Positions 301 through 30,426 of a DNA stretch of 32,000 nucleotides are shown here, one piece after another. Under the pieces are notes generated by a model. The model saw nothing but the letters and a program-made list of their open reading frames with translations. It ran no database searches and was not told the origin of the DNA. The DNA comes from Candidatus Methanophagaceae archaeon. GTDB taxonomy: Archaea > Halobacteriota > Syntropharchaeia > Alkanophagales > Methanospirareceae. A program made the translations under genes and the position numbers. Within the stretch, counting starts at the first letter, position 1; every line of letters starts with the position of its first letter. Where the stretch lies: assembly GCA_003194425.1 (NCBI GenBank), contig PQXB01000001.1, positions 490,444 through 522,443 on the forward strand, read 5' to 3'.

Positions 301-347
301 ACCTCGTCCTCCTCCTCTCGTCCTCCTCTCGTCCTCTTCTCGACTCG
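301..347. repeat. Imperfect tandem repeat (tcgtcctcctc-type, 11-14 bp units, about 3.5 copies) in the dnaJ 5' flank
   Basis: Direct reading: tcgtcctcctcctc / tcgtcctcctc / tcgtcctcttc / tcgac-tcgtcc. Confidence 0.7.
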
Positions 348-394
348 TCCTTCGCTGTTAAAGAATTTATCTTTTAAGGCTTAAATTTAAAAAA

Positions 395-991
395 ATGAAC
401 TACAAGGGACACCTGACCGTCGGTCTTGCCTGCGCCCTCGCCTTAAGTCTTGCCCTCTTCGTAGCCGTGGCAGAAGACCTTTTCCTCGCTCTCCCGCTCC
501 CGTTCTTCTCTCTCCTGCACCCGTTCTTCTCTCTCCCGTTCTTCTCTCTCCCGTTCTCGCTCGACTTCAAAGAACTGCCGTTGTGGATTTTAATCTGCCT
601 CTTCGGCTCGCTCGCACCCGACCTCGACCACAAGCACAGCAAAATCCACAGGTGGTCTTACACCGGCTCAGTCTCGTTCGGAGCCGCCCTCTACCTCCTC
701 TCCCACGAGCCGTTTCAGGCGTTGGCAGTTACAGCCGCGCTCGTGCTCACCGTCTTTTTACTCTCACGGCTGAAGCACCGCGGCTTTACACACCACGCAC
801 CAGGAGTGGTCATTTTTGCGGTGCTCTTGTACGCGGCGTTTTCTGTGCTGAACTTCTCGTCGCCGGTCGTGGTTACTGGGTTTGGAGTGGCGGGGTATTT
901 GAGCCACCTCGCTGCAGACTTCTTCTCCACTCGGAGCAAAAGAAAAGCCAACAAAGCGAGCAAGCAAACAGGCAAGCGAGCAAGCAAGTAG
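395..991 (+). CDS. Membrane-bound metal-dependent hydrolase, YdjM/DUF457-like
   Basis: 198-aa ORF with several hydrophobic helices. Motifs GHLTVG, APDLDHKHSKIHR, HRGFTHH and SHLAADFFS are typical of DUF457. It contains an in-frame PFFSL repeat insertion (nt 499-562). Confidence 0.6.
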   Translation: MNYKGHLTVGLACALALSLALFVAVAEDLFLALPLPFFSLLHPFFSLPFFSLPFSLDFKELPLWILICLFGSLAPDLDHKHSKIHRWSYTGSVSFGAALYLLSHEPFQALAVTAALVLTVFLLSRLKHRGFTHHAPGVVIFAVLLYAAFSVLNFSSPVVVTGFGVAGYLSHLAADFFSTRSKRKANKASKQTGKRASK

Positions 992-1000
992 GTAAGAAAA

Positions 1001-1834
1001 ATGAAAGGTTTAAAAGGGAAGGGAAAACCTGCGGTAGTGGGCGTGCTGAAAAGCCTCTCCGTTCAGGAGGCGTTGCGAGCGAAGGAGAGCGGGGCGGACG
1101 CGGTAGAGTTGAGAATTGACCTCTTGAATTTAGATTTGGGGGAGAAGGTAAATTTGGAGAGGGGGGGGAAGGGAGAGGAGGAGGGAGTAGAGAAGGTGCG
1201 AGAGTTCGTTGCGAGATTCAAAAAGGAGGGCGGGGGACTGCCAATAATCGCGACGAACCGCAGAAAAGAGGAAGGCGGGTCTTTCGGGGGCACCGAGGAA
1301 GAGCGGGTTGGTCTGCTAACTCGCCTCCTCGAGACTGCGGAGCTGGACGCTGTAGACATCGAGTTCTTCGCTCCCGAGGCGGGGAAAAAGGCTGTTTTAG
1401 AAACAGCGAGAAGACACCGCAGAACCGTTATTCTCTCGTTCCACGACTTCACAGGAATGCCAAGCCGCGAGGAGATTTTGGAAATCGTTGCGAGAATGCA
1501 CGAGGAAGGTGGGGGAACAGGTGAGGGCGGGTGCGTTGCAAAAATCGCGGTGACGCCGAGGACTCTGGGCGACGCTCTGTTTCTGCTTGACCTGACCTAC
1601 AAACTCTCAAGCGAGGGGAAGGCGGTGGCTACGATTGGAATGGGTGCAGTAGGAAGGCACTTGCGAGTAGTTGCACCCCTCTACGGCTCTGCACTGACCT
1701 ACGGCTTCCTGGAAGGCGAAGAAGGCGAAGAAGGAGAGGGAGGGGAGGAAGGAGAGGAAGGAGGAGTGGCTGTAGCACCGGGTCAGTTTAGTGTGAAGGA
1801 GTTAAGGGGAATGCTGCAAAATCTAATCTTCTGA
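1001..1834 (+). CDS. aroD: 3-dehydroquinate dehydratase, type I
   Basis: Motifs AVELRIDLL, PIIATNRRKEEGG, DAVDIEFF, ILSFHDF..MP, VAKIAV, MG..GR.LRV..PLYGSALTY and APGQ match the type I DHQase layout. There is a glutamate/glycine repeat insertion just before the C-terminal APGQ. Confidence 0.8.
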   Translation: MKGLKGKGKPAVVGVLKSLSVQEALRAKESGADAVELRIDLLNLDLGEKVNLERGGKGEEEGVEKVREFVARFKKEGGGLPIIATNRRKEEGGSFGGTEEERVGLLTRLLETAELDAVDIEFFAPEAGKKAVLETARRHRRTVILSFHDFTGMPSREEILEIVARMHEEGGGTGEGGCVAKIAVTPRTLGDALFLLDLTYKLSSEGKAVATIGMGAVGRHLRVVAPLYGSALTYGFLEGEEGEEGEGGEEGEEGGVAVAPGQFSVKELRGMLQNLIF

Positions 1835-3233: not shown

Positions 3234-3235
3234 AA

Positions 3236-3280: not shown

Positions 3281-3336
3281 TTTCTCTGTTCTTGTCCTGT
3301 TCGCTTGTTTCGCTTGTTTGTTTTTGTTCAAACTTT

Positions 3337-5062: not shown

Positions 5063-5902
5063 TTATTCTACACCTCCTCTCGGTACAAATAATTTCAAGT
5101 CCTTCACTCCTATGTCCTTCTTCCCGCCTTTTATCTCTGACATCTTCTTCCAGGGTTGGAATCCGCCGACTGTCCTCTTCCAGTGGATCTGTGCAGTCAC
5201 GTCCATCGACTCTGGGTCGTCCACTTCCTGCCAAACACCGCCCTGTGCGTTCCTGTACATCGTCGTTCTCTTGAGCAGCTCGTCCTCTGGCAGCGGCTTT
5301 CCTAAGACTACTTCCTTGTCCATCGCACCGCCGATCATATCTTTCACGTAGATGACTTCTCCGCCCTTGCCTTTTGACCATCTCCGCAGTGCGTCGAACA
5401 TCATTCCGTCCTCGTCCAGTCTGACCGCGTGCCCGTGCACTGTCCTTCCTCTCAGTCCTGTCCTCGCAGTGTCGTAGAGTTCGCAGTCTATCTGCTCTTT
5501 CGTTATCTTTTCGATGTCTCTCTCACGCCCTTCTATGATCGTCCTTCCTGACAACACACCTGGGTCTACACCCTTGTATCTGGTGTACGCTGCCCACGCT
5601 CGCTGGTAAGGCGTTATCGGTGCGAACATCATTGAGTCGGTGTACTGTACGTACCGAATCCTGTCGCCTGCCTTCGCTCCCTCTGTCGGCTCTACCATTT
5701 CACGAACCGCGCATTCAGGCTCTTCCATCTCCTCGAGTGGCGGGTGAATGCTCTTGTACTCCTCTCCTGGTGCCCTGTGTGCAAGCAGTCTCACAATGTC
5801 TTCCTCTGCAATGTCCCTCAATTTCTCGTAGGTGTAGTTCGGATCCATGTAGTTCCTTCTGTTCTGTGCTATATGGCTACTTCCAGCCGTATATTGTGGC
5901 AT
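5063..5902 (-). CDS. mcrG: Methyl-coenzyme M reductase gamma subunit
   Basis: 279 aa. It sits between mcrB and mcrA with a 1-nt gap to the mcrA ATG. Motifs IHPPLEEMEEP, RYVQYTDSMMFAP..PYQR and GRTVHGHAVRLDEDGMMFD are typical of McrG. A GGAGG lies upstream. Confidence 0.95.
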   Translation of the reverse strand: MPQYTAGSSHIAQNRRNYMDPNYTYEKLRDIAEEDIVRLLAHRAPGEEYKSIHPPLEEMEEPECAVREMVEPTEGAKAGDRIRYVQYTDSMMFAPITPYQRAWAAYTRYKGVDPGVLSGRTIIEGRERDIEKITKEQIDCELYDTARTGLRGRTVHGHAVRLDEDGMMFDALRRWSKGKGGEVIYVKDMIGGAMDKEVVLGKPLPEDELLKRTTMYRNAQGGVWQEVDDPESMDVTAQIHWKRTVGGFQPWKKMSEIKGGKKDIGVKDLKLFVPRGGVE

Positions 5903-5936
5903 TTTCTTTTTCCTCCTTTCTCCTTTTTTTCTCCTT

Positions 5937-7247
5937 TTACATTATCTCCTGCGCACCCTCGGCGACCGCCTTCATCGGCTCTGCAAACTCCGGAATCGCT
6001 CCCAGCACTTCTCCGTACAGCGCTGATGTCCTCGCTGGTATGAAATACATCGTGTCCGCGTCTATGCACATCGCAGCACAGAAGCACGGGATAAACTGCC
6101 CCTTTGCGTGCCTTGTAACGATGTGGTTTCCGTAGAACACACCCGGACCACCGCCTCCGTAAATCGAGTGCGAGAAGAACGAACTCGAGACTGACGCTCC
6201 TTGTGCCATTCCAAAGTCAGGTCCCGGCAGCCCTGTCTCTCTCTCCATCAAACAGCAGCTGTACATAATGTTCGATGGCACTGGCTGTCCTGCTCGCATT
6301 GATGCACAATTCACACACACTGCAGCAAGCATTCCCGCGCTCGCGTACGCGTTCCACAACTGCATATCGTCGGCGTCGTAAACCACGAACCCAGACGGCA
6401 TCTCCTTCAGCGGCTTTATCACTCCGTCCGCTTTTGCTCTCTCCACCGTGCTGTAAACCACATCTGCAAGCGTCCCTGTCTTTCCGTTCTCTTTTATCAG
6501 GTCGCGCAGCATGTTGTTCGCGTTCAGCCCCTCGTACGCCAAGTCCAAAAGATGCCCTCTCTCGTGCGGTCCCATGCAGTTGCCCATCTCGAATTGTGCT
6601 GCCTCTTCCAGAATCATCGCCAGCGCTGCACCCTGCATCGCTCTCTTCCGCACCGTCGCTGCCAAGTGGTTCACCGGAATGTTCCTCAGCACAAATCCCG
6701 GACCCTCGTTCTTTATCGGCACATCGACTAACATCTTCACTGCGCCGTCTGCTGGGTCTGGGTCCTGCGGATACATTCCCCACACTGCTGCATGCACATA
6801 AGGTGCTTCCCACATACTCACATCGCAAACATCGATGATCGCATGCGTCAGCGCACCCATCGCAGCCGTGAGACCAACCGAGTAGTCGCTCAAAATCCTA
6901 GCGCTCGGAACCTGCGTCAGCATCCGCTTTCCGCCTGCCATCAACTCGACATTCGTGTCGTCGTCCTCGCTAACACGCAGCATGTCTTCTACTTGTTCCG
7001 CTATCGCTTCCGCGTTCGCCAGTATCGGAAAGTCGTGTCCTACGCCGCGGATTACCATTCCTTTGCCTGCTATTGTTCCTGTTGCTAACTTGTTCTCCAG
7101 CTTCGCCAAGTCAACCGCACCTGTCCGAATGGTCAGGTTAACGATTTTCTTTATCGCTGGGTTCTTTAGTGGACTGATTGCCTCTAACGGCACGTTGCTC
7201 GCCAGTTGGTTGCCCCTGTCGTCGTATAGATCTACTTCATCTGCCAT
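5937..7247 (-). CDS. mcrB: Methyl-coenzyme M reductase beta subunit
   Basis: 436 aa. Motifs VDLYDDRGN, PLEA.SPL.NPAIK, GGKR.L.QVPSAR, DVSMW and SIYGGGGPG are typical of McrB. A GGAGG lies 10-14 nt upstream of the ATG. Confidence 0.95.
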   Translation of the reverse strand: MADEVDLYDDRGNQLASNVPLEAISPLKNPAIKKIVNLTIRTGAVDLAKLENKLATGTIAGKGMVIRGVGHDFPILANAEAIAEQVEDMLRVSEDDDTNVELMAGGKRMLTQVPSARILSDYSVGLTAAMGALTHAIIDVCDVSMWEAPYVHAAVWGMYPQDPDPADGAVKMLVDVPIKNEGPGFVLRNIPVNHLAATVRKRAMQGAALAMILEEAAQFEMGNCMGPHERGHLLDLAYEGLNANNMLRDLIKENGKTGTLADVVYSTVERAKADGVIKPLKEMPSGFVVYDADDMQLWNAYASAGMLAAVCVNCASMRAGQPVPSNIMYSCCLMERETGLPGPDFGMAQGASVSSSFFSHSIYGGGGPGVFYGNHIVTRHAKGQFIPCFCAAMCIDADTMYFIPARTSALYGEVLGAIPEFAEPMKAVAEGAQEIM

Positions 7248-7507
7248 ATTTTCCTTTTTCCTCCTTTTTTATTCTACCCACTCTTTATGGGCAAGTTTTA
7301 ACAAAGAAACGCATCTTTAAAAGATTTTCTTTTTTTCTCAAGCCTCCAAAAATGAGAAGCATTCTTGTGCGTGTTTATTAATTTAATTCACACAAATTGT
7401 GGTGGTTTCTAAAAAATATGACAATGTTTGTTAACAACCTCCCTCTACCCTCACACACTCCTTCCCTCTCTATTTCCCTCTCTCTTTCCCACCCTAATTC
7501 TGGCATT

Positions 7508-7529
7508 GTTAAGTGCTTGTTAAGTGCTT
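7508..7529. repeat. Tandem direct repeat, 2 x 11 bp (gttaagtgctt)
   Basis: Exact duplication read directly from the sequence. Confidence 0.9.
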
Positions 7530-7539: not shown

Positions 7540-7581
7540 GATTTCTAACTTTAGATTTCTAACTTTAGATTTCTAACTTTA
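7540..7581. repeat. Tandem direct repeat, 3 x 14 bp (gatttctaacttta)
   Basis: Three exact copies read directly. In mcr orientation the unit reads taaagttagaaatc. Confidence 0.95.
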
Positions 7582-7591: not shown

Positions 7592-7639
7592 CTAATCCTC
7601 TTTTATAAGACATAGCTAATCCTCTTTTATAAGACATAG
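7592..7639. repeat. Tandem direct repeat, 2 x 24 bp (ctaatcctcttttataagacatag)
   Basis: Two exact copies read directly. It is preceded by atctaata/atctaat and followed by aaaataatat(t/a)gaaa-type repeats up to about 7680. Confidence 0.95.
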
Positions 7640-7699
7640 AAAAGTAATATTGAAAATAATATAGAAAATAATATTGAAACATTTATTTAGTCAGTAAAA

Positions 7700-7939
7700 A
7701 TGCCAGAAGAAAAGAAGAAGAAAAGTTGGATAGAAATAGAAGCCGAGAAGGCGGATAAAGAAGAGGGCGGACGGAAAGCACAGATAATCGAGAATGCAAA
7801 GTGTGAAAATTGCGGAAAAGAGGTGGAAGAAGGAGAATACATCGTGGTTCGGGGTAGAGTTCTTTGTGCAGAATGTTACGAGGGGGAATTGGAAGAAGGA
7901 ATGGATATGGGAGCCGCGGACGTCGCTGGAGCGGGGTGA
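7700..7939 (+). CDS. Small acidic zinc-ribbon protein (hypothetical)
   Basis: 79 aa with CENC...(17)...CAEC, i.e. two CxxC pairs. No Shine-Dalgarno is present, so it may be leaderless, with AT-rich TATA-like repeats 25-40 nt upstream. Confidence 0.5.
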   Translation: MPEEKKKKSWIEIEAEKADKEEGGRKAQIIENAKCENCGKEVEEGEYIVVRGRVLCAECYEGELEEGMDMGAADVAGAG

Positions 7940-8038
7940 GAGACCGGGGTAGGAGACCAGGGTAAAAGATGAGAAAGGAAGAAAGAGGGAACGAAGAAGT
8001 AAAGAAGAGGAAAGGGGAGTAAAAAGGAGAGAGGAAGA

Positions 8039-10014: not shown

Positions 10015-10119
10015 TGCAGTAAGTAAAAAGCACGACTGCGAAGCCTTGACAAAGAAACGGACTATAAAAAGTTTGGGGGGTTTTCATTTTTTACCCCCTG
10101 TTTTTATTTTTGAAAAACT

Positions 10120-11186: not shown

Positions 11187-11214
11187 AAGCCCTGTAAGCG
11201 AAGCCCTGTAAGCG
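11187..11214. repeat. Tandem direct repeat, 2 x 14 bp (aagccctgtaagcg) in the citG-like promoter region
   Basis: Exact duplication read directly. A second imperfect duplication of about 21 bp (cctttaccgctt core) lies at 11085-11126. Confidence 0.9.
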
Positions 11215-11242
11215 AAGAGAAACTCAAACCACTTTATTAATG

Positions 11243-12986: not shown

Positions 12987-13123
12987 TTACAGCGAGCAGC
13001 AGCGAGCAGGCTAACCGCGCTCCAGTGGTAAATCCTGTTCAACTCCTCCCAGTCCTTCAGTCCTCGCGACATAAAAAAGATGTTCCCCCAATTTTATGCC
13101 CATTTTCCTCAACTCGAAATTAA

Positions 13124-13494: not shown

Positions 13495-13538
13495 GCGGGT
13501 GCGACGCGGGTGCGACGCGGGTGCGACGCGGGTGCGAC
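13495..13538. repeat. Tandem direct repeat, 4 x 11 bp (gcgggtgcgac)
   Basis: Four exact copies read directly, between the SRP RNA 3' end and the trpB stop, followed by atttttc. Confidence 0.95.
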
Positions 13539-13544
13539 GATTTT

Positions 13545-14909
13545 TCACAAACCCTCCCCCCCGAGCACTTCCTCCACACTGAAAATGTCTTTGTCGCCCC
13601 TTCCCGAAAGACAGACCACAATCAAATTCTCTTCCCTCTCTTGCTTCTGCTCCTTTGCCACTTTCTCCACTTTCTCCGCTTTTTTCGCTCTCCGTTTCGC
13701 TTCTTCGACTGCGTAGTGAATTGCGTGAGCGGACTCAAGAGCCGGAATAATGCCCTCCTTTGTAGACAAAACCTCGAAAGCCCTCAAAGTCTCCTCGTCA
13801 GTCGCAGCCCGCATTTTTACCCTGCCCGAGTCCACCAAGTACGCCAACTCCGGTCCAACGCCGGGGTAGTCAAGCCCGGGGGCGAAGCTGTAGGACTGTT
13901 TTATTTGACCGTCCTCGTCCTGCAGCAGCTTCGAGTACATTCCGTGCAGGACGCCCTCGGTGCCAGCGCAGAGCGACGCCCCGTGCTCGCCGGTCTCCAA
14001 GCCCTTCCCCGCAGCCTCGACGCCGACGAGTTCCACTTCTTTGCCTGCCTCGTTACCCTCCTTGTTCTCCACCTCCTTGTCCTCCAAGAACTCGTAAAAT
14101 GTGCCGAGAGCGTTACTGCCACCCCCGACGCATGCGACTACGAGATTTGGCAGCCTGCCCTCCGCCCTCAAAATCTGCTCTTTCGTCTCCCTGCCGATGA
14201 CACGCTGAAACTCACGCACAATCAGCGGGTAGGGGTGCGGTCCCACTACACTGCCGATCAAGTAGTAGGTGTCCTCGACATTCGTTACCCAGTCCCGCAT
14301 AGATTCGTTTATCGCGTCCTTCAGCGTCCTCGAGCCCGAATCCACAGGGCTCACCTTCGCTCCCAAAAGATGCATCCGAAAGACATTCGGTCTCTGCCGC
14401 ACAATGTCTTCGGTGCCCATAAAAACCTCGCACTCCAGCCCCAAAACCGCAGCAGCCATCGCGGTCGCCACCCCGTGCTGACCCGCACCGGTCTCGGCAA
14501 TTACCCGCCGCTTTCCCATCTTTTTCGCCAGCAGGCACTGCCCCAATGTGTTGTTCAACTTGTGCGCACCCCCGTGCACCAAGTCCTCCCGCTTCAGGTA
14601 AATCTTCACTCCACCGCTCTTCACCCCGCAGTTCGTCCCACTGCCGTTTGTCCCACTACCGTTCGCACTACTCGCTCCGCCGCACATTTCAGACAGGTTC
14701 TTCGCGAAGTAAAGCGGTGTTGGACGCCCTGCGTAAGTCCGCAAAAGCCTGCCCAACTCCTGCTTAAAACTCTTCTCCTCTGAAAGCCAAAAGCGGTTGA
14801 ACGCCTCCTCAAGCTCCTCCAACGCCGTCATCAAAACCTCGGGTGCGAACTTCCCCCCGAATTTCCCAAACTTTCCCTGCTCGTCCGGTCTGCTTAACAT
14901 CTTCAACAT
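13545..14909 (-). CDS. trpB: Tryptophan synthase beta chain
   Basis: [66 protein letters not shown] and LSGRGDKD are the family motifs. Several insertions relative to the family, including a [10 protein letters not shown] duplication. Confidence 0.92.
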
Positions 14910-15592
14910 TTTACCGCCTCCAAGAATTTTTTTACCTTCGCCGCGTCCTTCTTCCGCAGCCTGCTCTCCACACCGCTGGAGACGTCCACTGCGTAGGGTT
15001 TCACCACTTTCACCGCTTTTACGACATTTCCAGGGTTCAACCCGCCAGCAAGAATCACTTTTTCTCCACCCACTCGCTCGACAATTTCCCGACTTACCGT
15101 CCAGTCGTGCACTCTCCCAGTGCCTCCGATTTCCTCTGCTCCTGCTCCAACCTCCTCTGCTCCTGCTCCAACCTTTGTCCCTACCTCAGTGTCCAGCAAA
15201 ATCGCGTCTGCAACGCCCTCGTAAGCCAACGCCTCCTCCAGGGACTTCTTTCTGTCGCGACCAACGCCGATTTTTTTTATTATTTTTATCCCGCTTTTTA
15301 TCTCTTCTCGCAACGCCGCCACAAACTCCACCGACTCCTCACCGTGCAGTTGCACGCAGTCCGCCCCGGTCTCCACGATTGCGGTTATTTTGTCGGTTGG
15401 AAGACCGTCCAGCCTGGCGACCACGACCTTAGAGACAAAAATCGGGAGAGCTGCGAATATTCGCTTGGCGTCCTCCAAACTCGTGTAACGGCTCGTTCCC
15501 GCCACATTTACCACGCCGACAGCGTCTGCACCTGCCTCTGCCGCCAGCAACGCGTCTTCCACCGAAGTGTTGCCGCAGATTTTCACTCTCAT
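14903..15592 (-). CDS. trpF: Phosphoribosylanthranilate isomerase
   Basis: [13 protein letters not shown]...GADA.G.V, VQLHG, LLD...GGTG..HDW and LAGGLNP.NV are the family motifs. A 7-nt overlap with the trpB start suggests coupling. Contains a VGAGAEE duplication. Confidence 0.88.
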
Positions 15593-17278: not shown

Positions 17279-17343
17279 AATTAGTAGAGGATCTAACTCT
17301 AAATTAGTAGGGGATCTAAATCTAAAGAAATCTAAATCTAAAG
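17279..17343. repeat. Tandem direct repeats (2 x 23 bp aattagtagRggatctaaMtcta, then aagaaatctaaatctaaag) directly upstream of the A2-like gene
   Basis: Read directly. There are five ATCTAA hexamers in 50 bp, and the array ends 25 nt before the ATG at 17369. Confidence 0.9.
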
Positions 17344-19105: not shown

Positions 19106-19166
19106 GGAGAAATAAAAAGGATAAAATAAAGAGGATAAAATAAAAAGGAAAAAGAAGAAGAATTTT

Positions 19167-19883: not shown

Positions 19884-22800
19884 CTAAAGAGCCGGCGCCC
19901 TTACCGTCTTGCCCTGCAGCACCGCCTCTTCTGAAACGCTCTGTTCTACCTCCCGCAACGCCACCGTCTCGTTCTTCATAAGTTTTATTTTGTAGGGTGC
20001 CGCGACAGTAAATCCCTCAAGTTCAAAATCCGTTCCTTCGGTTGAGTACGGCACGACGAAGGAGTAGGTGCCGTTCGAAAGAGTTCTTGCGGAGTAAACG
20101 AACTCTCTTCCTTGGTTTGAGGTTACGTTCGTGGAGATTTCAACGACCGAGCCGTTAGGTGCAGTCCCTTCTACACTCCCTTCTACCCTCGCACCCTTCA
20201 CGTACTCAAAAACCTTCACGAATTTTATTTCCTGCCCTCCCTGCCAGCCCATTGAAATTATGGTGCTCGGGGACTCGTGAACGAGCCTGTAGTGGCGTAA
20301 AGGCTGCAGGTAAAGGTCCTTGCCAAGTTCCACGCCAGTGCCGTCGAACAAGTGAAGGCGGGCTTCCATCGTGCTGTAATATTTCGCGGTCGGTGCAATT
20401 TGCGGTCCCTTCTCGGTGTTCACCCGCATAATGTAGCCGCCGGTGTCTTTAGCCCACGCCGTAATCGCGCTGAACTTCGGCGTAAGCCCGAGCCTGCTGC
20501 AAATCCCTGTTACATCCGCCATCTCAAAGTCGCTCACCACGTACCTCGTGCCAAGTTCGTCCAAAATCCAATTCGCCTCCTCCTCGTCCCGCGAGACGAA
20601 GAAAGTGCAAGCACCGGGTCGCAACGAGCCGTCCTCGTTCCGCCCTCCGATTCCACCTTGGAACGGGTTGGAATTCGGAATTCGGTGTGCGTAGAGCGTT
20701 ATCACATGCCCGTAGTCCCACCAACTCATTACACCGTACGCGCTCTCTGGATATTTGTAGTCCACCCCTCGCGGCGGCTCTTCGTACAATTCATAATAAT
20801 TCACCCCCGGGTCAGGCGTGTTGTTCCTCATCCAAAACAGCGACTCGTACCAGTCCTCAGGGAAGACCGAAGGACCGCTCTTGGCGTGGTAGTAGGACCA
20901 CTTGAAATTGTCGGGCAGGTTCTCTGGGAACGAGTTAGTGAGGTTAAAAGGGAAGGGGTAGAAAAGAATGAGAATTATCAAAAAGACCACTAAAACGCGG
21001 TTTGGAGCGCCGTATTTCTTTAGCCCTCTCCTCACACTCTTCTCGCTCTTCTTACTACCCTTACTACCCTTACTCGCCTCTGCCTTCTGCTTCTGCCGCT
21101 GCCTCTCTTCTACCTTCTGCTTTCCTTTGACCTTCCTTTCATTTTTCCTCACCGCCCCTGCTCCTGCCCCCTTTCCCGTCCCCGCTCCTGCCCCCTTTCC
21201 CGTCCCCGCTCCTCCTTCCATCTCGCTGCTGAAAAAATCAAAGCCCAACCGCGTCGTCCGAACTGCGAACAGACCACAGAGCAGTGCCACATTCACCGCG
21301 TAGTAGTAGACGAACCGACTCATCCCAATCGGAGGCGGAGAAATGCCCAGCATATCAAAAATAACGCCCAAAATCAGCAGGTTTATAAAACTCCAAACCA
21401 AAAACAAAGACTCCTCCGCCCGCCATTTCTTTACAACGCTGTAAATCACAAACCCAAACCCGGCGAGCGAGATGTAGAAGCAGGTGGAGAAGTTCCTCAG
21501 GGCAGCGTCCAGCGTCATCGGGTGCATTTCGCCCAGCACTTCCATCGCAATCCCGTATTTCACCCACCCAAACGCATTTGCAAACGAGGCGTACAACGAA
21601 GGCGTCGCGAGCCGCAAAACGACTAAAATCGCAATCCCCTCCGCCAAAAGCACAAACAGATACGCGTAGGGCACCATTTTTCTCCGTGCCAAGACCGAAG
21701 AGGTCGCACTCAAGACCAGAACCACGACCGCTCCGATGAGCATTGACGCCGTGTGCACCGAACTGTACATTCCCGAGTGATTCAAGAACGGCGAAATCAT
21801 CAAGAGCGGAATTAGAAACACAGGAACGCCGACGATGCAGAGGTAGTCGGTTGAGTTGCCACGCAGGTGCTCAAAGATAAATTGAGCGAAGAGAGCGACG
21901 AAAACGATGAAGACGAAGAGGACGCAGCCGACCCAAGTGAGTGCGTAAAGACCAAACGAGAAGCCTGCAAGGAAAATAAAGACCAAAACCTTTCTCAAAG
22001 ACGAAAAGTCCCTTTTCGCCACTGCAGCCGCTAACTGCTCGAAAGTTACGCCGCCTGCTCCGCACGCCTTCGCCTCCTTTAACGCCAACACCAAAAAGAG
22101 CATTGCTACCGTGCTAAAGAGGAGTTCGGCAACGTGGTGGTCGGCAGCCCCCAAAATCGAGCGGAACAAGAAGCCCGGCAGAATCGCGATTAAGAACGCC
22201 GAGACCAAGCCCACTGCCCTGCTGTACAACTCTTTTCCGATGAAATAAACAGGAAAGACAACCAGAGCGCCGAGAACCGCGGGGTAGTAAGCCAAGACAG
22301 TTTCCATTAATTCCTGCGTCGGCGCGCCCAAGCCGAGCAGCCAAGTAAAGAAGGCAGGGATTTGGTCGAAGAGTGGGGCGAAGTGAAGGTGGTCTCCGTG
22401 CGGGTAGAGTGTGTAGGGGTCGAAGAAAATCCTGTGCGGGTAGTGCCCGCCGAAGAGCAGGTTCTCAACCAGCCGCACGTGGTACACTGGGTCGTCAGAC
22501 CCAAACATTACCCGCCCGCCGCCAACGAAGACGCGGTCGTAAGGCAAGACCGTTCTTATGAGAAGTGAGATTCCAAAAATGACATACAAAATGTTAAAAA
22601 CTGGCAGTCGCTCGAGGAGCGTCCGCAGTCTCGCAGACCCAAGGTCAAGGCGGAAACTTGATTTTTTCGAAATGAGAATTGGCAGAATTCCTGCACCCGC
22701 AGCGATGAAAAACAGAAAACTCACCCTCCTGCCCTCCTCGAAAAAAATTGTCGGGCTAAAGGCGGTTACAAGTGGGTAAAAAATTATGAAGGACTCAAGC

Positions 22801-22943
22801 AGAATCAGCGAGCCGTAAAAAAGCCATTTATTTTGCAGCCTGTCTCGCAGGCTCTCTCGCAGGCTCTCTCGCAGCCTGTCTAACTGTAGCGTTGCGTTCG
22901 GTCTTGTCTTTTTCTGTTTCCCGCCCTCTCCGCTTCGTTTCAT
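19884..22943 (-). CDS. aglB: Archaeal oligosaccharyltransferase AglB (STT3 family), long form
   Basis: 1019 aa with a multi-helix N-terminal membrane domain. The WWDYGH motif (MSWWDYGHVI) is followed by a large C-terminal soluble domain. A long basic low-complexity insertion contains two repeat families. Confidence 0.88.
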   Translation of the reverse strand: MKRSGEGGKQKKTRPNATLQLDRLRESLRESLRDRLQNKWLFYGSLILLESFIIFYPLVTAFSPTIFFEEGRRVSFLFFIAAGAGILPILISKKSSFRLDLGSARLRTLLERLPVFNILYVIFGISLLIRTVLPYDRVFVGGGRVMFGSDDPVYHVRLVENLLFGGHYPHRIFFDPYTLYPHGDHLHFAPLFDQIPAFFTWLLGLGAPTQELMETVLAYYPAVLGALVVFPVYFIGKELYSRAVGLVSAFLIAILPGFLFRSILGAADHHVAELLFSTVAMLFLVLALKEAKACGAGGVTFEQLAAAVAKRDFSSLRKVLVFIFLAGFSFGLYALTWVGCVLFVFIVFVALFAQFIFEHLRGNSTDYLCIVGVPVFLIPLLMISPFLNHSGMYSSVHTASMLIGAVVVLVLSATSSVLARRKMVPYAYLFVLLAEGIAILVVLRLATPSLYASFANAFGWVKYGIAMEVLGEMHPMTLDAALRNFSTCFYISLAGFGFVIYSVVKKWRAEESLFLVWSFINLLILGVIFDMLGISPPPIGMSRFVYYYAVNVALLCGLFAVRTTRLGFDFFSSEMEGGAGTGKGAGAGTGKGAGAGAVRKNERKVKGKQKVEERQRQKQKAEASKGSKGSKKSEKSVRRGLKKYGAPNRVLVVFLIILILFYPFPFNLTNSFPENLPDNFKWSYYHAKSGPSVFPEDWYESLFWMRNNTPDPGVNYYELYEEPPRGVDYKYPESAYGVMSWWDYGHVITLYAHRIPNSNPFQGGIGGRNEDGSLRPGACTFFVSRDEEEANWILDELGTRYVVSDFEMADVTGICSRLGLTPKFSAITAWAKDTGGYIMRVNTEKGPQIAPTAKYYSTMEARLHLFDGTGVELGKDLYLQPLRHYRLVHESPSTIISMGWQGGQEIKFVKVFEYVKGARVEGSVEGTAPNGSVVEISTNVTSNQGREFVYSARTLSNGTYSFVVPYSTEGTDFELEGFTVAAPYKIKLMKNETVALREVEQSVSEEAVLQGKTVRAPAL

Positions 22944-23013
22944 CCTTTCTACAAATATTTTCCACTCTCTTTAAATAGCTCTTTTTATTAAACAACCTTC
23001 AAACCAAAAACAA

Positions 23014-24976: not shown

Positions 24977-26218
24977 TTAGCGAACGACCCTGCCCAGCAC
25001 CCGACGCAACGCAGAAAAATCGCAGAGCATTGAAGTGTAAGCAGCGTTCGCTAACGGGCAACAGCACTCGCCTCGCCTCACCGAAGCCCGAATTTCATCC
25101 GCTTTCCGTGAACGCCAGACCCAAGCGAAATCGTAGTCTGCGGTTCCGGCTCTGAGGTTTCCAAGCGGTTCTGCACGCACGCAGCACGCCCAAACATCGC
25201 CGTAAGCAGAAATTTGGCAGGAGGCAAAACCTGCGTAACACGGAATCGGCTGCCTCCTCTCCGTAAGCACCTTCTCCAACAGCCTGTAGTACTCCAGCCG
25301 AAATGCCTGTGTTACGCGGGCGAGAAAGTCGGCTTCGGGGTCTTTGAGGTAGTCGCGTTTTATTCGCTCGCGTAGCGGTGCGAACGCCGCAGCAAAGGAG
25401 CGGTAGTCTGGCGTGACTCCGCTGCCGACCGTCCCGAGTTCTACTCGCTCTTCCGCAACCTCAAAAATGTGCGAATCTGGCTTCGGATTTAAGCCCTGCA
25501 CAAACTCGTAAATCTCCTCGAGCCGGTCGAGGTTGAAGTTGGAGACGACAGTGTGAACGCCCACTCGAAGCCGCGGATTTTCAAAATCCTGCTTGAGTGC
25601 AGTTAGTCGCTCGTAAGTGGCAACGAACTTCTCAAAATTGCCCGCAACGCCTCTTATTTCGTCGTGCAGCGAGCCAACGCCGTCTAACGAGAGGTTGAGA
25701 ATTAAATCAGATTTCCCTTTTTTTGTCTTATTTTTTACCTCCAAAAGCTCTCGCACCCTCCTCTCTACAAGTCTTGGAGCGGTGGCGTTGGTCGGAATGT
25801 TCACGATATTTGGCGAGCAGTGGCGGGCGAGTGCGTCGTAGATTTCCACCAGGTCGCTTCGGAGAAACGGCTCGCCACCGCTCAGCGTGACCCAGTAGGC
25901 GCTTTTTCCAACGCTCTCAAAAATCCTCGCAAATTCGCCGGCACTGAGCTCTAACCTTGACCCGCTTCTACGTAACGCGGGCTGTTCTTCGTCGCAGTCG
26001 TCGTAGAGTCGCCAAATGTTGCAGGTCTTGCAGCGGGCGTTGCACCTGTTCGTTACGCTGACCGTGTAGTTTATCGGGAGCGGGAGAGAACCGCGAGCGG
26101 GAGTGAGGTGAGCGGGAGAGAGGTGAGCGGGAGAGAGGCGAGCAGGAGTGAGAGCAACGCCAAAGGTTCGGAATGCCTTCAGGTTCAAGACTTTCAGGGG
26201 TAGCAGGAATTTTAGCAT
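24977..26218 (-). CDS. Radical SAM protein with C-terminal Cys-rich (SPASM/twitch-like) extension
   Basis: CNARCKTC (CxxxCxxC), SGGEP and a downstream CYAGF.SC...YGDVWAC motif. The N-terminus carries an LTPAR/LSPAH x4 repeat, so the exact start is uncertain. Confidence 0.75.
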   Translation of the reverse strand: MLKFLLPLKVLNLKAFRTFGVALTPARLSPAHLSPAHLTPARGSLPLPINYTVSVTNRCNARCKTCNIWRLYDDCDEEQPALRRSGSRLELSAGEFARIFESVGKSAYWVTLSGGEPFLRSDLVEIYDALARHCSPNIVNIPTNATAPRLVERRVRELLEVKNKTKKGKSDLILNLSLDGVGSLHDEIRGVAGNFEKFVATYERLTALKQDFENPRLRVGVHTVVSNFNLDRLEEIYEFVQGLNPKPDSHIFEVAEERVELGTVGSGVTPDYRSFAAAFAPLRERIKRDYLKDPEADFLARVTQAFRLEYYRLLEKVLTERRQPIPCYAGFASCQISAYGDVWACCVRAEPLGNLRAGTADYDFAWVWRSRKADEIRASVRRGECCCPLANAAYTSMLCDFSALRRVLGRVVR

Positions 26219-26306: not shown

Positions 26307-26666
26307 TTATCCTCTTCGCCGAATCGAGATTTCGCGTTTCTTCGGCATTATTTGCTGCAGAATCTGCTTCAACTGTGCGTCATTTATCGCACTTTTTAGC
26401 CGCCCTGTCTGTGCCAACGCGATTAGCTGGTTCTCCAACTGCTCCGCGAACTCGGGCTTTGCCATTCTTATGTTGTTCAACCGCTCTCGTGCCTCGGGTG
26501 TGAGAATCTGCTTAAGAATGCTCTTTTTTACTTCTTCTACTTCCCGCTTTCGCCTTTCCTCCTCTGACTCCCCTACACCTGCTCCTGCACCTACCCCTGC
26601 TCCTTCCTGTAGCATTTGCTCATATTTTCGCCGCCTTATTTCCTCTAACTCCTCTTCACTCGCCAT
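26307..26666 (-). CDS. PDCD5/TFAR19-like dsDNA-binding protein
   Basis: [37 protein letters not shown]...I.D.QLKQIL matches the family. It sits directly downstream of eS19, as in many archaea. Confidence 0.8.
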
Positions 26667-26668: not shown

Positions 26669-27211
26669 TTAATTCTTAACACCTCCCTGATTTGCTCTAC
26701 CTTCCCTGCTTTGTTCTGCGTTTTTCTTTGGGTTTGCGGTTTGCTCTGCGTTCTTTAGCACGTGTGCGGTGTTGTCGAGAAAAGACTGCCCCTTCGGCGA
26801 AATTACTCGTCCCTTCCGCCCTTTTCGTCCCTTCTGCCCTGTCCTCCCATTTTTATTCTTTCCCTGCTCGGGCTTAATTACGAAACCTGCCTGCTCCAAC
26901 TGCGAGAGCACGGTTCGTATTATTTTCCCCGAGGCTGCTCTGAACCGCTCGGGCTTTGCTCCTCTTCTAACTCTGCTGCCGTAGTAAGTGCGTAGCCGCG
27001 AGACCCCGACAGGACCGTGCAGGTAAATCTGCCGCAGCACCGACGCGGACCGCAGCCACCACCAGTCGTCGTCCTGAGGCGGCAGTTCCTTGTTCGCACC
27101 CTTCTTCACCTCCGCAGCCCACTTTGGCATTCGAATGGCTTTGTTCTTCTTCAGTTCCTCCGCCACCTTCTCCACCAATTTGCCAGGCGGCACGTCGTAC
27201 AGTGTTGTCAT
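26669..27211 (-). CDS. rps19e: Ribosomal protein eS19 (S19e) with extended basic C-terminal tail
   Basis: [20 protein letters not shown]...MPKWA..VK.G..KE.PP.D.DWW..R.AS.LR..Y..GPVGV.RLR..YG matches the family. I prefer the ATG at 27211 (MTTLYDV) over the track start at 27304. Confidence 0.88.
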
Positions 27212-27311: not shown

Positions 27312-28790
27312 ATGAAAAGCGAGGACAGGAGCGGGGAAGTGAAAATCGGGTTGGAATGCCACGCGCAACTTCTTACGAGGTCGAAGTTGTTCTGCCCCTG
27401 CTCTACGGACTACCAGAATTCAGAGCCGAACACGCACGTCTGTCCGACCTGCTTGGGCTTGCCGGGGGCTCTGCCGGTAGTGAACGAGCAGGCGATAAAA
27501 TACGGCGTGAAAGTGGCACTCGCGCTGGGCTGTGAGGTGCAGCCAGTGACAACTTTCTACCGCAAAAACTACTTCTACCCCGACCTCCCGCGGGGGTTTC
27601 AAATCACGCAGTACGACTTCCCGATTGCGTTGAACGGGCTTGTGAAAATAGAGAACAAGAAGGTGAGGATAAGGCGAGTGCACCTGGAGGAAGACCCCGG
27701 CAGGCTGGTCTACAAGGGCACGATCGAGACCGCGAAATATTCACTCGTTGACTACAACAGGTCGGGAATTCCGCTCGTGGAAATCGTTACCGAGCCGGAC
27801 TTGAGGTCGCCGAAGGAGGCACGGGTGTTTTTGGGCAAGCTGCGGAGCGTGTTGGGATATTTGGGCGTCTTTGACAGCGACTTGGAGGGGGCGTTGCGGG
27901 TCGACGCGAATGTCTCAGTGGCAGGCGGCGAACGGGCGGAGGTGAAAAATATTTCGTCCTACAAAGGCGTGGAACGGGCGTTGTCGTTTGAAATAACGCG
28001 GCAGAGGAACTTGCTGCGACGGGGACTCGGGGTGGTGCAGGAGACGAGGCACTACGACGAGGCGCGGGGAATTACAGTTTCAATGCGGACGAAGGAGTTC
28101 GAGCACGACTACCGCTACTTCCCTGAGCCTGACCTCGTGCCGATTCGGATTTCAGGGCTGGTGGCGGGGTTAAGGGCGGAGATTCCTGAACTTCCAGACG
28201 AGAAGAAAAAGCGGTTCGTCTCGCAGTACTCGGTAACGCAGGAGCACGCGAACTCGCTGACCTTCGACAAGAGTGTAGCAGATTTTTACGAGGAGGTGGT
28301 GTCAAAAATGCCAAAGACGGAGGCGGTGGCGGGCTCAAGTGCTGCGGTGGCGGGCTCAAGTGCTGCGTGGGTGGCTACTTGGGTGGCGGATGTTTTGAAA
28401 GGCGAACTGAATTATCGTGGAATTTCGATGCGCGAGGCGTCAAAACTGATTTCGGCTGGCGATTTCGTCACGGTCTTGAAGCTTTTGAAAGAGGGCGTTG
28501 TTACAGAGCGCGGTGCGACTGAGATTTTGAGAGAAATGCTCGACCGCGGAGGGAAGCCGAAAGAAATCGTGAAAAAGAAGGGGTTGGCGAGTTTGGGCTC
28601 TGCAGAGACCGAGAAGGCGGTCTTTGAAGTGCTGGGAGAGGAGCAGAACGCAGGTGCGGTTGCGGACTACAAACTCGGCAAAAAAGAGGCTTTGAACTTC
28701 TTGGTTGGGCAGGTGCTGAAGAAGACGAGGGGGCGGGCGGAGCCGAAGAAAATCAACGAACTGCTGAAACTGGAACTCCAAAAAAAGTGA
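27312..28790 (+). CDS. gatB: Asp/Glu-tRNA amidotransferase subunit B
   Basis: KIGLECHAQL.T.SKLFC.C, NTHVCP.CLGLPGALPV.N, FYPDLP.G.QITQ, LEEDPG, VDANVS and a C-terminal YqeY-like tail. Contains a VAGSSAA duplication. Confidence 0.9.
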   Translation: MKSEDRSGEVKIGLECHAQLLTRSKLFCPCSTDYQNSEPNTHVCPTCLGLPGALPVVNEQAIKYGVKVALALGCEVQPVTTFYRKNYFYPDLPRGFQITQYDFPIALNGLVKIENKKVRIRRVHLEEDPGRLVYKGTIETAKYSLVDYNRSGIPLVEIVTEPDLRSPKEARVFLGKLRSVLGYLGVFDSDLEGALRVDANVSVAGGERAEVKNISSYKGVERALSFEITRQRNLLRRGLGVVQETRHYDEARGITVSMRTKEFEHDYRYFPEPDLVPIRISGLVAGLRAEIPELPDEKKKRFVSQYSVTQEHANSLTFDKSVADFYEEVVSKMPKTEAVAGSSAAVAGSSAAWVATWVADVLKGELNYRGISMREASKLISAGDFVTVLKLLKEGVVTERGATEILREMLDRGGKPKEIVKKKGLASLGSAETEKAVFEVLGEEQNAGAVADYKLGKKEALNFLVGQVLKKTRGRAEPKKINELLKLELQKK

Positions 28791-28791
28791 A

Positions 28792-29550
28792 ATGAGAGAG
28801 CGGTTCAGGCTAAAAGAGACCTCCGCGTGGATTACCGCAGACGAGTGGAAATACATTGAAATCGCAAAAGAAGAACTGACGAAACGCCGAACTGAGTTGG
28901 AGCGCTTCGTTCGCTGCCACCCTTTCTTCCTCGTAACGCTCGAACCTTACCTGCCCAAACCTTACCCAACCGCTTACCATACCGAAGAGCCAGAGACGGT
29001 GCGGAGAATGCTCGAGTCGGCAGGAAAATTCGGCGTAGGTCCGATGTCCGCGGTTGCAGGAACTTTAGCAGAGCTCGCGGTAGAGGCGATGCGAGACGCT
29101 GGGGCGAGGCACGCAATCGTGGACAACGGTGGCGACGTCGCGCTGCTAAGCGACCGAGAAGTGCTGGTTGGAATTTACGCCGGCAGCGAAAGCCCGTTCT
29201 CTAACCGAATCGCTCTTAAAATACGCCCCTCTTCCCCTTCCTCCTCTCGCCCTTCGTTAGTCGGCGTCTGCACCTCCTCGGGAACGGTGGGGCACTCAAT
29301 AAGTTTCGGGAACGCGGACGCCGCCACGGTGGTAAGCGGGAGTGCCTCGCTCTCCGACGCCGCAGCCACTACACTCTGCAACTCCGTGACTGACGCCAGT
29401 TCCGTCCCGCAAGCCTTCCGCACAGTCAGCCAAGTGGCAGGCGTCAAAGGAGCGGTCGTAATTTGCAAGGACACGCTCGCGAGCTGGGGCGAGGTGGAAC
29501 TCGTCCGTCTAAAGGCTCTAAACGCCCCTCAAAATTGCCAACACGAGTAA
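28792..29550 (+). CDS. UPF0280 / ApbE-like family protein (COG2122-like)
   Basis: GVGPMSAVAGTLAELAVEAM...GA...IVDNGGDVAL and SSGT.GHS.SFG.ADA..V match the pattern I recall for archaeal UPF0280 proteins. It starts 1 nt after the gatB stop. Confidence 0.6.
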   Translation: MRERFRLKETSAWITADEWKYIEIAKEELTKRRTELERFVRCHPFFLVTLEPYLPKPYPTAYHTEEPETVRRMLESAGKFGVGPMSAVAGTLAELAVEAMRDAGARHAIVDNGGDVALLSDREVLVGIYAGSESPFSNRIALKIRPSSPSSSRPSLVGVCTSSGTVGHSISFGNADAATVVSGSASLSDAAATTLCNSVTDASSVPQAFRTVSQVAGVKGAVVICKDTLASWGEVELVRLKALNAPQNCQHE

Positions 29551-30426
29551 GGTCGCAGTCCTTGCGAGCTCGTTGGAAGCGCCCAGCACATCCCCGCTTA
29601 CTACGCCAAAATTCCTCCTCGCAAGACGCGAGACGAAAAAAGCAACCACGACGCCCACAAAAACAACCACCCCAAAAGAAGTGCCAAAAAATAAACTGAC
29701 GAGCACCGCGGAAACAAGTGCAAACGCGAACTTTGGTGCGGTCTGCGATTTTATGAACAACGCCCCCAGCCCCTTGACCTCAAGCCCCTCGTTAGAACCT
29801 GCAGAGGCTGTAGCGTCCGCTCTTCTGCCGAGAAAAAGGCAAGTGTTCACGCTCACCTTCGCCGAGACCTCCGCCACCACGAAAACCCCAACGAACTCGT
29901 AAAAGTGCGTGAAACCTGCTGTGAAACCTGCTGTGAAACCTGCTGTGAAGTCCGCACCTGAACACACAGTCTTAACAGCAAACAGGTTCAAGAGCAGGAC
30001 AAAAACAACCGCGAACAAGCCTGCCACGCCCAACTTCTCGTCCTTCATCGCCCGCCGCTTCTCACTCCGCCCTCCTCCCGCCATCAGACCGTCGAAAAAG
30101 TCTGCCAAACCGTCCAAGTGCAGCAGACCTGTAAGAGAGTAGAGAGCGAGCAGAACGAGCAGAGCCGCAAGCTCTGACCCTGCTTCCGACCCTGCCTCTG
30201 ACCCCAAAACACCAAACCGCCAAACCGCTAAACCACCAAATCGCAAAACCGCTAAACCACCAAACGCCACCGCGCCAACAACCAACCCAATAAACGACGC
30301 AGCGAGCGGGAAGAGGTAACTCTTGGCTGCTACCGTCTCTATTTTCGCTCCTCTTTTTACCGGCAGCCGCGTCAAGAAACTGACTACATCAAACATCGCC
30401 CAGTCAAAATAACCTCCGCTCCCCAC
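29518..30426 (-). CDS. cobS: Adenosylcobinamide-GDP ribazoletransferase (cobalamin synthase)
   Basis: FLTRLPV, LHLDGLADFFDG, R...AMKD...G..G and GDVLGA match the family in a polytopic membrane protein. Three separate in-frame tandem duplications are present. The 3' end overlaps the convergent UPF0280 gene by 33 nt. Confidence 0.85.
   Translation of the reverse strand: MGSGGYFDWAMFDVVSFLTRLPVKRGAKIETVAAKSYLFPLAASFIGLVVGAVAFGGLAVLRFGGLAVWRFGVLGSEAGSEAGSELAALLVLLALYSLTGLLHLDGLADFFDGLMAGGGRSEKRRAMKDEKLGVAGLFAVVFVLLLNLFAVKTVCSGADFTAGFTAGFTAGFTHFYEFVGVFVVAEVSAKVSVNTCLFLGRRADATASAGSNEGLEVKGLGALFIKSQTAPKFAFALVSAVLVSLFFGTSFGVVVFVGVVVAFFVSRLARRNFGVVSGDVLGASNELARTATLLVLAILRGV

Follow-up and report, generated by a model that had tools for sequence, protein, structure and literature searches.

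Tandem duplications of short DNA segments crowd a stretch of contig PQXB01000001.1 (the window, by which we mean all 32 kb analyzed), which carries the mcrBGA locus of a species of ANME-1 (anaerobic methanotrophic archaea, group 1; Methanophagales). The arrays are in excess over those of related archaea, their units fall between 9 and 25 bp, units within genes keep the reading frame, the excess is restricted to this lineage, copy number still varies among its strains, and the protein segments that the repeats encode are derived insertions. We consider it probable that, in this one species-level lineage, tandem duplication and copy-number change of 9-25 bp segments proceed at roughly an order of magnitude above the level of related ANME-1, relative to point substitutions, and that the products are filtered by reading frame. 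A preliminary description, made from the window alone, had proposed a high rate of short duplication filtered in this way; the approximately tenfold density, the in-frame units of all coding arrays and the unit-step variation among strains bear it out.

Abundance, unit length and reading frame

An exact scan of the window (period 9-40, at least 2 perfect copies, overlapping rows merged) returned 20 arrays with units of 9-24 bp, and Tandem Repeats Finder (TRF) returned 72 rows at a score of at least 30 and 20 merged arrays at a score of at least 50 and period 9-40. Dinucleotide shuffles (n = 50) yielded a mean of 0.22 exact arrays and a maximum of 2. Shuffles within local 60-bp blocks (n = 100) yielded a mean of just 0.39, again with a maximum of 2, and a local low-complexity effect is rejected as the cause on that ground. 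The copies lie head to tail without spacers at a frequency above chance, as do those of variable-number tandem repeat (VNTR) loci, and in coding sequence the short in-frame repeats are visible as repeated peptides, as in low-complexity expansions. Clustered regularly interspaced short palindromic repeats (CRISPR) are rejected, as every array consists of contiguous copies, is at most 76 bp long and has no spacers. Target-site duplications or excision footprints of mobile elements are likewise rejected, since units of 9, 10, 11, 12, 14, 15, 21 and 24 bp occur with no dominant length, and since alternative alleles differ by the repeat unit alone.

Reading frame separates the arrays inside genes from those between them, much as first described: the unit is a multiple of 3 in 11 of 11 exact coding arrays (binomial versus 1/3, p = 5.6e-6) versus 2 of 9 noncoding ones (Fisher p = 4.6e-4), and it is a multiple of 3 in all nine arrays found in 14 kb of same-species DNA outside the window. 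The coding repeats that had been named (in YdjM, aroD, trpB, trpF, aglB, the radical-SAM gene, PDCD5, eS19, gatB and cobS) were all located where they had been placed, in DNA and in protein. Per kb, the genes of the window contain 0.39 arrays and the DNA between them 2.29. A third of the noncoding density would be in frame, and the coding density amounts to about half of that share (0.39 versus 2.29/3 per kb); roughly half of in-frame insertions appear to be tolerated. The mcr genes had been singled out as free of repeats through strong constraint. The first part is true of exact arrays, of which the 3.9 kb of mcrBGA holds none, but 1.5 would be expected at the coding density, and since P(0) = 0.22, the lack of arrays is not significant as a sign of special constraint.

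The density extends beyond the window and is peculiar to the species. Exact arrays number 0.63 per kb in the window (20 in 32 kb), 0.625 per kb in positions 1-9600 of contig L071, which lie upstream of the window and encode Sua5, eS8, an aIF5B-type IF-2, a methyltransferase and DnaJ, and 0.64 per kb in the tail of contig L060, which encodes PGK, GAPDH and a major facilitator superfamily (MFS) transporter. (L-numbers denote contigs and loci compared with the window, both same-species strains and other ANME-1 loci.) The high rate proposed for the genome at large is, in other words, matched at equal density in the 14 kb of same-species DNA outside the window. Comparable figures are 0.077 arrays per kb for 54 other ANME-1 mcr loci (584 kb), 0.02 per kb for the nearest relatives by GatB (three loci, 42.6 kb, 1 array) and, with the same scan, 0.14 per kb for the extrachromosomal element of M. 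jannaschii, 0.12 per kb for pHV3 of Haloferax volcanii and none in 50 kb of E. coli. Pooling the data gives 29 arrays in 46.3 kb for this species versus 38 in 615 kb for other ANME-1 (rate ratio 10.1, p = 1.8e-16), which gives a magnitude to the excess over other archaea that the preliminary description had implied. It holds in sequence covered by open reading frames (ORFs; 0.56 versus 0.044 per kb) and outside ORFs (2.09 versus 0.28 per kb, approximately 8-fold), and because it is present in both alike, weaker purging of protein insertions cannot be its sole cause. An effect of GC content is rejected, since the six ANME-1 loci whose GC exceeds 50% show background density (0.076 arrays per kb).

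Unit length bounds the excess sharply. The ratio to other ANME-1 is 1.1 for units of 3 bp, 1.1 for 4-5 bp, 1.9 for 6 bp and 1.4 for 7-8 bp; it is 6.6 for 9 bp, 3.9 for 10-11 bp, 17 for 12 bp, 27 for 13-14 bp and 53 for 21-25 bp, and there are five arrays with 15-bp units here versus none in other ANME-1. Units above 25 bp gave no arrays in this species or in the others. The reach of the duplication process is roughly 9-25 nt. Microsatellite instability from a deficiency in mismatch repair is rejected as an explanation, since units of 3-5 bp stand at 1.1 times the level of other ANME-1. The per-unit-length ratios replace a 1-9 bp repeat metric modelled on PMC12699852, which was not comparable with the original and barely separated the sets.

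Polymorphism among strains and insertions in conserved proteins

Contigs from other strains, 98-99.5% identical to the window (L002, L059-L061, L064, L065, L071, L072, L078, L079, L089 and L090), were obtained by looking up exact proteins and by a single metagenome scan; GatE and CitG gave no matches, and the YEATS protein encoded near the window's end gave contigs of ~1 kb only. The strains differ from the window in both directions by whole units (9, 11, 12, 14x2, 15, 16, 18, 24 and 33 bp, and others), and unit-step differences occur at at least seven intergenic arrays among strains 98-99% identical, so the copy-number polymorphism that had been anticipated at individual repeats is found at many of them. 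Within genes, indels between strains include aroD +9, trpB +/-54 (a segment composed of nested 15-bp duplications), DUF488 6, AbpE +9, cobS -12, eS19 +18, aglB +21, +12 and -3, and radical SAM -15 and +9. CitG and CARDB have in-frame indels too, and every indel of more than one base inside a gene is a multiple of 3. A 24-bp tandem duplication in L089 runs across the gatE stop codon (window 24941-24966), leaving the protein unchanged and placing the second copy in the 3' untranslated spacer. Six duplications are new, of 14, 16, 18, 24, 24 and 9 bp, each having a single-copy allele in other strains, as expected of de novo events.

The spectrum of differences is set apart from that of other ANME-1. 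BLAST alignments of strains with the window contain 22 gaps of at least 9 bp per 820 mismatches, versus 0 per 3329 mismatches for control ANME-1 strain pairs (95-99.8% identity) aligned in the same way; the associated p-value of 4e-16 is indicative only, because the strain comparisons are not independent. The two 21-bp copies in gatB have G (Ala) in the window, L066 and L090 and T (Ser) in L078 and L079, and they are identical within each strain. Such concerted copies, seen in this one array, need recurrent duplication, contraction followed by re-expansion, or conversion. Whole-unit copy-number differences and, in the gatB array, homogenization among copies are properties of VNTR loci. Among singleton differences between strain groups we count approximately 7 expansions versus 2 contractions, a figure that is suggestive only, the strain tree being unrooted; an excess of expansions would be an insertion bias, the opposite of the usual prokaryotic deletion bias.

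Comparison with orthologues distinguishes the repeats from ancestral sequence. The 16 residues of GatB that hold VAGSSAA twice are missing in 66 of 66 relatives, among which internal insertions are almost unknown. CobS is 245-274 amino acids (aa) long in 95 relatives, except for one with a longer predicted N-terminus, versus 288-292 aa in this species, and its insertions occur in none of the 95. The TrpF, TrpB and GatB repeats fall in gaps of the homologues when aligned with solved structures. The nearest relatives are without the GAGVGAG insertion of PDCD5, the internal GRK insertion of eS19 and the extended eS19 tail (147-149 aa in relatives versus 186 aa called in L078 and 199 aa in L066), and radical-SAM orthologues of 57-66% identity are without the LSPAH segment. 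Judged by these alignments, the repeats of GatB, CobS, TrpB, TrpF, eS19, PDCD5 and the radical-SAM protein are derived, species-specific insertions, and they have entered enzymes whose length is otherwise conserved; on both counts the preliminary description stands. Its expectation that the insertions would sit in loops is upheld for GatB and CobS, the two proteins that the models cover: in AlphaFold models for which these alignments were the input, residues 336-348 of GatB and 55-69 of CobS, which correspond to the GatB insertion and to the main one in CobS, are coils with a predicted local distance difference test (pLDDT) score below 50, lying between confident helices. G, A, S, E and K abound in the inserted peptides. 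The affected families (TrpB, TrpF, AroD, GatB, CobS, eS19, AglB) are old and conserved rather than young or fast-evolving.

Origin of the duplications

We suggest that duplications arise throughout the DNA, noncoding sequence keeping units of any length and genes keeping those that are multiples of 3. Coding insertions that survive would be those in tolerant places, such as termini, linkers and the modelled loops of GatB and CobS, and it is by insertion at such sites that housekeeping proteins would lengthen. The molecular step is most likely replication-associated misalignment or template switching over distances of up to ~25 nt, perhaps promoted by short direct repeats and by purine/pyrimidine skew in the sequence; after two copies exist, ordinary in-register slippage could alter their number. 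We can speculate that the root cause lies in an altered lagging-strand flap-processing or polymerase activity. Junction microhomology over 20 arrays averages 3.1 nt versus ~0.7 expected, and the purine/pyrimidine skew of the units is 0.757 versus a background of 0.66, a value reached in 0 of 2000 resamples.

A number of points weigh against this account. The six datable new duplications have junction microhomologies of 0, 0, 0, 1, 4 and 5 nt, and no replication or repair gene lies within the ~46 kb of genome reached. Those ~46 kb come from three regions, and "genome-wide" is an extrapolation from them. Density is the product of origin rate and persistence, so that slower loss would look alike; and the strains are phylogenetically non-independent on an unrooted tree, which leaves the rates and the ~7:2 expansion bias rough. 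Events with zero microhomology are not easily explained by classical primer-template slippage. The slippage or microhomology-mediated duplication named in the preliminary description is accordingly favored by the mean over the arrays and disfavored by three of the six datable events.

Because half of the datable events are without microhomology, fill-in and end joining must be taken seriously as a rival account of how a duplication first arises. A staggered double-strand break, or a pair of nicks in opposite strands, with 9-25 nt between the two cuts would be filled in and rejoined, the overhang being duplicated without homology, and slippage would just resize the product. Half of the datable new duplications, with 0-1 nt of microhomology, and the sharp upper limit of ~25 bp on unit length are what such a process might leave, and in yeast the de novo tandem duplication of non-repeated sequence is reported to require end joining (Lehner et al. 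2012, cited in PMC4608483). The mean microhomology is nevertheless well above chance, many coding arrays have 4-8 nt, the sites are unmarked as nuclease targets and no obvious motif is common to the units. We regard an origin in break repair as unlikely.

Relaxed selection or drift alone, in which the duplication rate would be ordinary and a small effective population would let in-frame insertions persist, is a much weaker candidate. It would account for proteins visibly longer than their counterparts in relatives, and a coding density at about half the in-frame share of the noncoding density does suggest weak purging, but non-ORF DNA is equally in excess, the strain indel spectrum is shifted (the controls, with four times the substitutions, have none of the long gaps) and the excess is limited to units of 9-25 bp. 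It is harder still to credit that the repeats are selected features, whether as flexible linkers, as regulatory repeats ahead of the mcr genes or as switches for phase variation. Arrays do lie promoter-proximal upstream of mcrB, tRNA-Glu and the CBS gene, and the composition of the inserted peptides is linker-like; the arrays are, however, scattered over unrelated genes and spacers with no common motif, are missing in all relatives and vary freely among near-identical strains, and no array with a unit of at least 9 bp is out of frame such that a gene could be switched on or off.

That the arrays are an assembly or sequencing artefact, or the ordinary archaeal repeat background, can be set aside with very little hesitation: short-read contigs do often stop at arrays (L001 at 7941, L062 and L063 at 21169, L067 at 28363 and 29937, L065 at 14661), and assembly errors are known to arise at tandem repeats (PMC6868369), but identical structures recur across several samples and assemblers (Logan, MEGAHIT-style ENA contigs, a SPAdes contig, JGI, NCBI), every array is at most 76 bp and fits within a typical 150-nt Illumina read (read length assumed), and ~600 kb of other ANME-1, likewise metagenome assemblies, has ten times fewer. 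Contig ends at arrays are to be expected if the repeats form loops in the de Bruijn graph or vary within the population, and such breaks would tend to hide repeats rather than create them.

More tentatively, and with a modest chance of being right, we raise the idea that a heritable change in replication or repair (FEN1 flap processing, strand displacement by PolB or PolD, or nick and end joining) makes the lineage a natural mutator whose duplications are confined to 9-25 nt, that it has arisen independently in at least one ANME-1c lineage as well, and that it reverses the usual deletion bias and lengthens core proteins. If this were true, the ~25-nt ceiling would reflect a physical dimension of the machinery, for instance the length of a flap, footprint or overhang.

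Setting of the arrays and resemblance to known systems

The arrays are collected in Table 1. Some had been outlined more cleanly than they proved to be. The PDCD5 repeat is present, but as an imperfect 12/18-bp array with 78% matches rather than a clean 18 bp x2, and the intergenic repeat placed near 7939-7965 extends over 7932-7969 with 80% matches; of the repeats reported for 11085-11214, a clean array exists just at 11187-11217, the rest being one weak 21-bp pair. Gene names were confirmed by Pfam, with the correction that the gene called DUF457 belongs to PF04307, YdjM.

Table 1. Tandem arrays of the window, in window coordinates (strand given for arrays assigned to genes)
Array and location	Position	Strand	Strain variation and basis
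11 bp x3 (TCCTCCTCTCG), intergenic, upstream of ydjM	310..342		TRF score 59; exact x2.45; unchanged in L001, L071-L074
ydjM (PF04307), 15 bp x2.5 exact plus overlapping 21-bp row; PFFSL repeat; protein LPFFSLLHPFFSLPFFSLPFSL	482..557	+	TRF, exact scan
aroD, 9-bp units x5.9 (EGEEGEEGEGGEEGEEGG)	1711..1763	+	one more 9-bp unit in strain L071
9 bp x2.2, intergenic, downstream of mcrA	3300..3319		TRF, exact scan
11 bp x2, mcrB-mcrG spacer	5917..5938		TRF, exact scan
12 bp x2.4, upstream of mcrB	7462..7490		+24 bp (two units) in L002, L071, L072
11 bp x2.2, intergenic	7506..7529		TRF, exact scan
14 bp x3.0, intergenic	7540..7581		single copy in six other strain contigs; no junction microhomology
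24 bp x2.0, intergenic	7592..7639		single copy in six other strain contigs; no junction microhomology
12 bp x3.3, intergenic (3 copies)	7639..7679		2 copies in L002, L061
13 bp x2.9 imperfect, 3' end of 79-aa zinc-ribbon gene	7932..7969		contig L001 stops here
14 bp x2.2, between citG and ParA/Fer4 gene	11187..11217		TRF, exact scan
10 bp x2, directly upstream of CBS gene	12990..13009		TRF, exact scan
11 bp x4.1, between SRP RNA and trpB stop	13495..13539		L059, L061 3 copies; L060 1 copy
trpB, 9 bp x2.8 (KAEKVEKVA), within C-terminal insertion relative to solved TrpB structures	13658..13682	-	TRF, structure alignment
trpB, 54-bp (18-aa) insertion holding 15 bp x2.3 (NGSGT x2)	14617..14670	-	missing in L059, L060, L064 and all solved TrpB structures
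trpF, 21 bp x2.05 (VGAGAEE x2), within 15-aa insertion relative to T. maritima TrpF	15132..15174	-	exact scan, alignment
23 bp x2.1 plus 6-bp units, between aroC and ABC ATPase gene	17279..17342		additional exact 16-bp duplication in L061
14 bp x3.1, directly upstream of tRNA-Glu	19110..19153		L060, L064 +17 bp; L059 +3 bp
aglB linker, 9 bp x2.7 (SKG x3)	21051..21074	-	TRF, exact scan
aglB linker, 24 bp x2.6 (GTGKGAGA x2.5)	21152..21213	-	L089 +21 bp, L059 -3 bp; three short-read contigs stop here
aglB N-terminus, 12 bp x3.3 (LRES x3)	22835..22881	-	four full units in L089
radical-SAM/SPASM N-terminus, 15 bp x4.9 (LSPAH/LTPAR x4-5)	26078..26152	-	one unit shorter in L090; segment missing in 57-66% identical orthologues
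PDCD5-like gene, imperfect 12/18-bp array; 8-aa insertion relative to nearest relatives	26570..26604	-	TRF, alignment
eS19 C-terminal tail, KNAEQ repeats (gene also has KGRKGRKGR)	26669..26760	-	extra exact 18-bp unit at 26717 in L078, L079, L090
gatB, 21 bp x2.1 (VAGSSAA x2) plus 12 bp x2 (WVAT/WVAD); 16-aa insertion	28323..28391	+	missing in 66 relatives; modelled loop pLDDT <50
cobS, 12 bp x3.4 (FTAG)	29909..29949	-	one unit shorter in L078
cobS, 12 bp x2.8 (GSEA), species-specific insertion	30172..30204	-	modelled loop 55-69, pLDDT <50
cobS, 24 bp x2.7 (FGGLAVLR), species-specific insertion	30204..30269	-	TRF, relatives alignment

The genes mcrB (5937-7247), mcrG (5063-5902) and mcrA (3337-5061) are all on the minus strand, and neither mcrC nor mcrD accompanies them in the window. 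The Pfam-confirmed complement also comprises YdjM, AroD, a Toprim protein, a tetrapyrrole methylase, a CARDB surface protein, CitG, a ParA/ferredoxin (Fer4) protein, a CBS protein, TrpB, TrpF, dCMP deaminase, AroC, an ABC ATPase, DUF488, AglB, GatE, a radical-SAM/SPASM protein, a PDCD5-like protein, eS19, GatB, an AbpE-like protein, CobS and a YEATS protein. The last (284 aa, 30695-31549, plus strand) matches prokaryotic YEATS PF20305 (E = 3e-16), and the same sequence occurs in contigs of three other samples. Upstream of the mcr operon lie two plus-strand genes with no Pfam match, one for a Cys-rich, zinc-ribbon-like protein of 79 aa (7700-7939) and one for a protein of 104 aa (8039-8353) that is found at 68-78% identity across many ANME-1 mcr loci. 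An archaeal signal recognition particle (SRP) RNA gene is at 13155-13469 (+; Rfam RF01857, 182.6 bits) and tRNA-Glu(CTC) at 19166-19242 (+). Polymorphic arrays adjoin both, downstream of the former and upstream of the latter.

Larger differences between strains were seen as well. Approximately 520 extra bp lie between aglB and gatE in L059 (16851-17386), L078 (3042-3577) and L089 (3285-3820), a segment that the window is without (22991-23005); gene calls in L059 and L078 give it an 80-aa ORF and a HicA toxin, which fits the hicAB structural-variation hotspots described for ANME-1 (PMC13385816). L061 (3230-3905) has a 729-bp insertion next to citG with two ORFs (135 and 88 aa) and no Pfam match, found neither in the window (~10113-10119) nor in other strains. 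L060 (15046-19799) departs from window synteny exactly inside the aglB 24-bp array (window 21169) and continues into the genes for PGK, GAPDH and the MFS transporter; this break reflects either a genuine rearrangement at the repeat or a chimera introduced in assembly.

The species stands apart from its relatives. A McrA search of species-representative genomes gave 54 loci, the best 92% identical, labeled nearly all as ANME-1, Methanophagales or a broader archaeal taxon, and the GatB relatives form one cluster at 98% identity with the next at 78% or less. GC content is 53% in the window versus 43-44% in the nearest relatives by GatB (L080, L083 and L086; 75-76% identity); the lineage is shifted in base composition as well as in indel spectrum. 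Contig names of hydrothermal type (L081 "GBSed", L080 "hydrothermal vent metagenome") belong to relatives and not to the window species. A tblastn search of all window proteins against ANME-1 mcr loci L005-L058 found almost no repeat-bearing genes, and with so little synteny orthologues had to be compared through protein searches.

The arrays resemble bacterial VNTR, or minisatellite-like, loci, such as the mycobacterial interspersed repetitive unit (MIRU)-VNTR loci of Mycobacterium tuberculosis, which are tandem repeats made and resized by replication slippage. Head-to-tail units of at least 9 bp, low copy number, unit-step strain differences, in-frame units in genes and concerted copies are common to both. 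Here, however, the density is a uniform ~0.6 per kb (in ~46 kb) rather than a few discrete loci, housekeeping enzymes and ribosomal proteins are affected, many arrays are first-generation duplications (2.0-2.6 copies) of formerly unique sequence, and the host is an uncultured archaeon. Yeast rad27 mutants reportedly have a duplication mutator signature, which is similar in that short unique segments are newly duplicated in tandem and in that microsatellites of 1-5 bp show no matching rise. Direct repeats of a few bases often bound the yeast duplications; here the mean junction microhomology exceeds expectation, but half of the datable events are without flanking direct repeats. The likeness is one of spectrum, and ours is a natural population rather than a laboratory mutant. 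Rad27 (FEN1) is described as preventing sequence duplications and repeat expansions (PMC4608483, which cites Tishkoff et al. 1997 on the mutants).

Short-repeat dynamics in the low-complexity regions of prokaryotic proteins have been attributed mainly to replication slippage, and such regions belong for the most part to young families that evolve fast (Persi, Wolf, Karamycheva, Makarova, Koonin 2023, PMC10120016). There too, short in-frame repeats appear and resize in coding sequence; here the families are old and length-conserved, and the excess is tied to one lineage rather than to a protein class. Plasmodium falciparum, which has the highest short-tandem-repeat density among 117,861 genomes surveyed (PMC12699852), offers another parallel, in that a genome-wide repeat bias puts non-conserved, probably disordered segments into conserved enzymes. 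In Plasmodium the bias is linked to a genome extremely rich in AT and to units of very short length, unlike the 53% GC and the 9-25 bp units found here. Among ANME-1, the contig JAOQIN010000051.1 (L032) of Ca. Methanoxibalbensis ujae (ANME-1c) carries, within 12.4 kb, 8 exact arrays whose units measure 9-16 bp (P = 1.5e-6 versus the ANME-1 background), multiples of 3 in 4 of 4 within ORFs and in 1 of 4 outside them. It represents a separate lineage, with a McrA 75% identical and a GC content of 48.6%, and is a single contig; L031 and L033, whose McrA is likewise 75% identical, are at or near background density.

This is a known kind of process at an unusual, lineage-specific intensity and not a new kind of system. 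Our literature searches gave no earlier description of the signature in ANME-1 or other archaea, and a study of ANME-1 structural variation left out variants of 50 bp or less (PMC13385816). Archaea have the lowest short-tandem-repeat density among the domains, a relative depletion (117,861 genomes, PMC12699852), to which this lineage is a clear exception, with a signature sharply bounded at units of 9-25 bp and no microsatellite excess. Since short-read contigs break at the arrays, metagenome-assembled genomes of the species will be fragmented and gene lengths will vary between assemblies; by the same token, the arrays can be used as high-resolution strain markers for ANME-1 populations in metagenomes that contain it. 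In a larger context, the lineage is a natural experiment in the entry of insertions and low-complexity segments into old enzymes and in the tolerance of proteins for in-frame insertions. If the cause is a change in a specific replication or repair gene, the lineage would connect a genotype with a mutational spectrum in an uncultivable organism.

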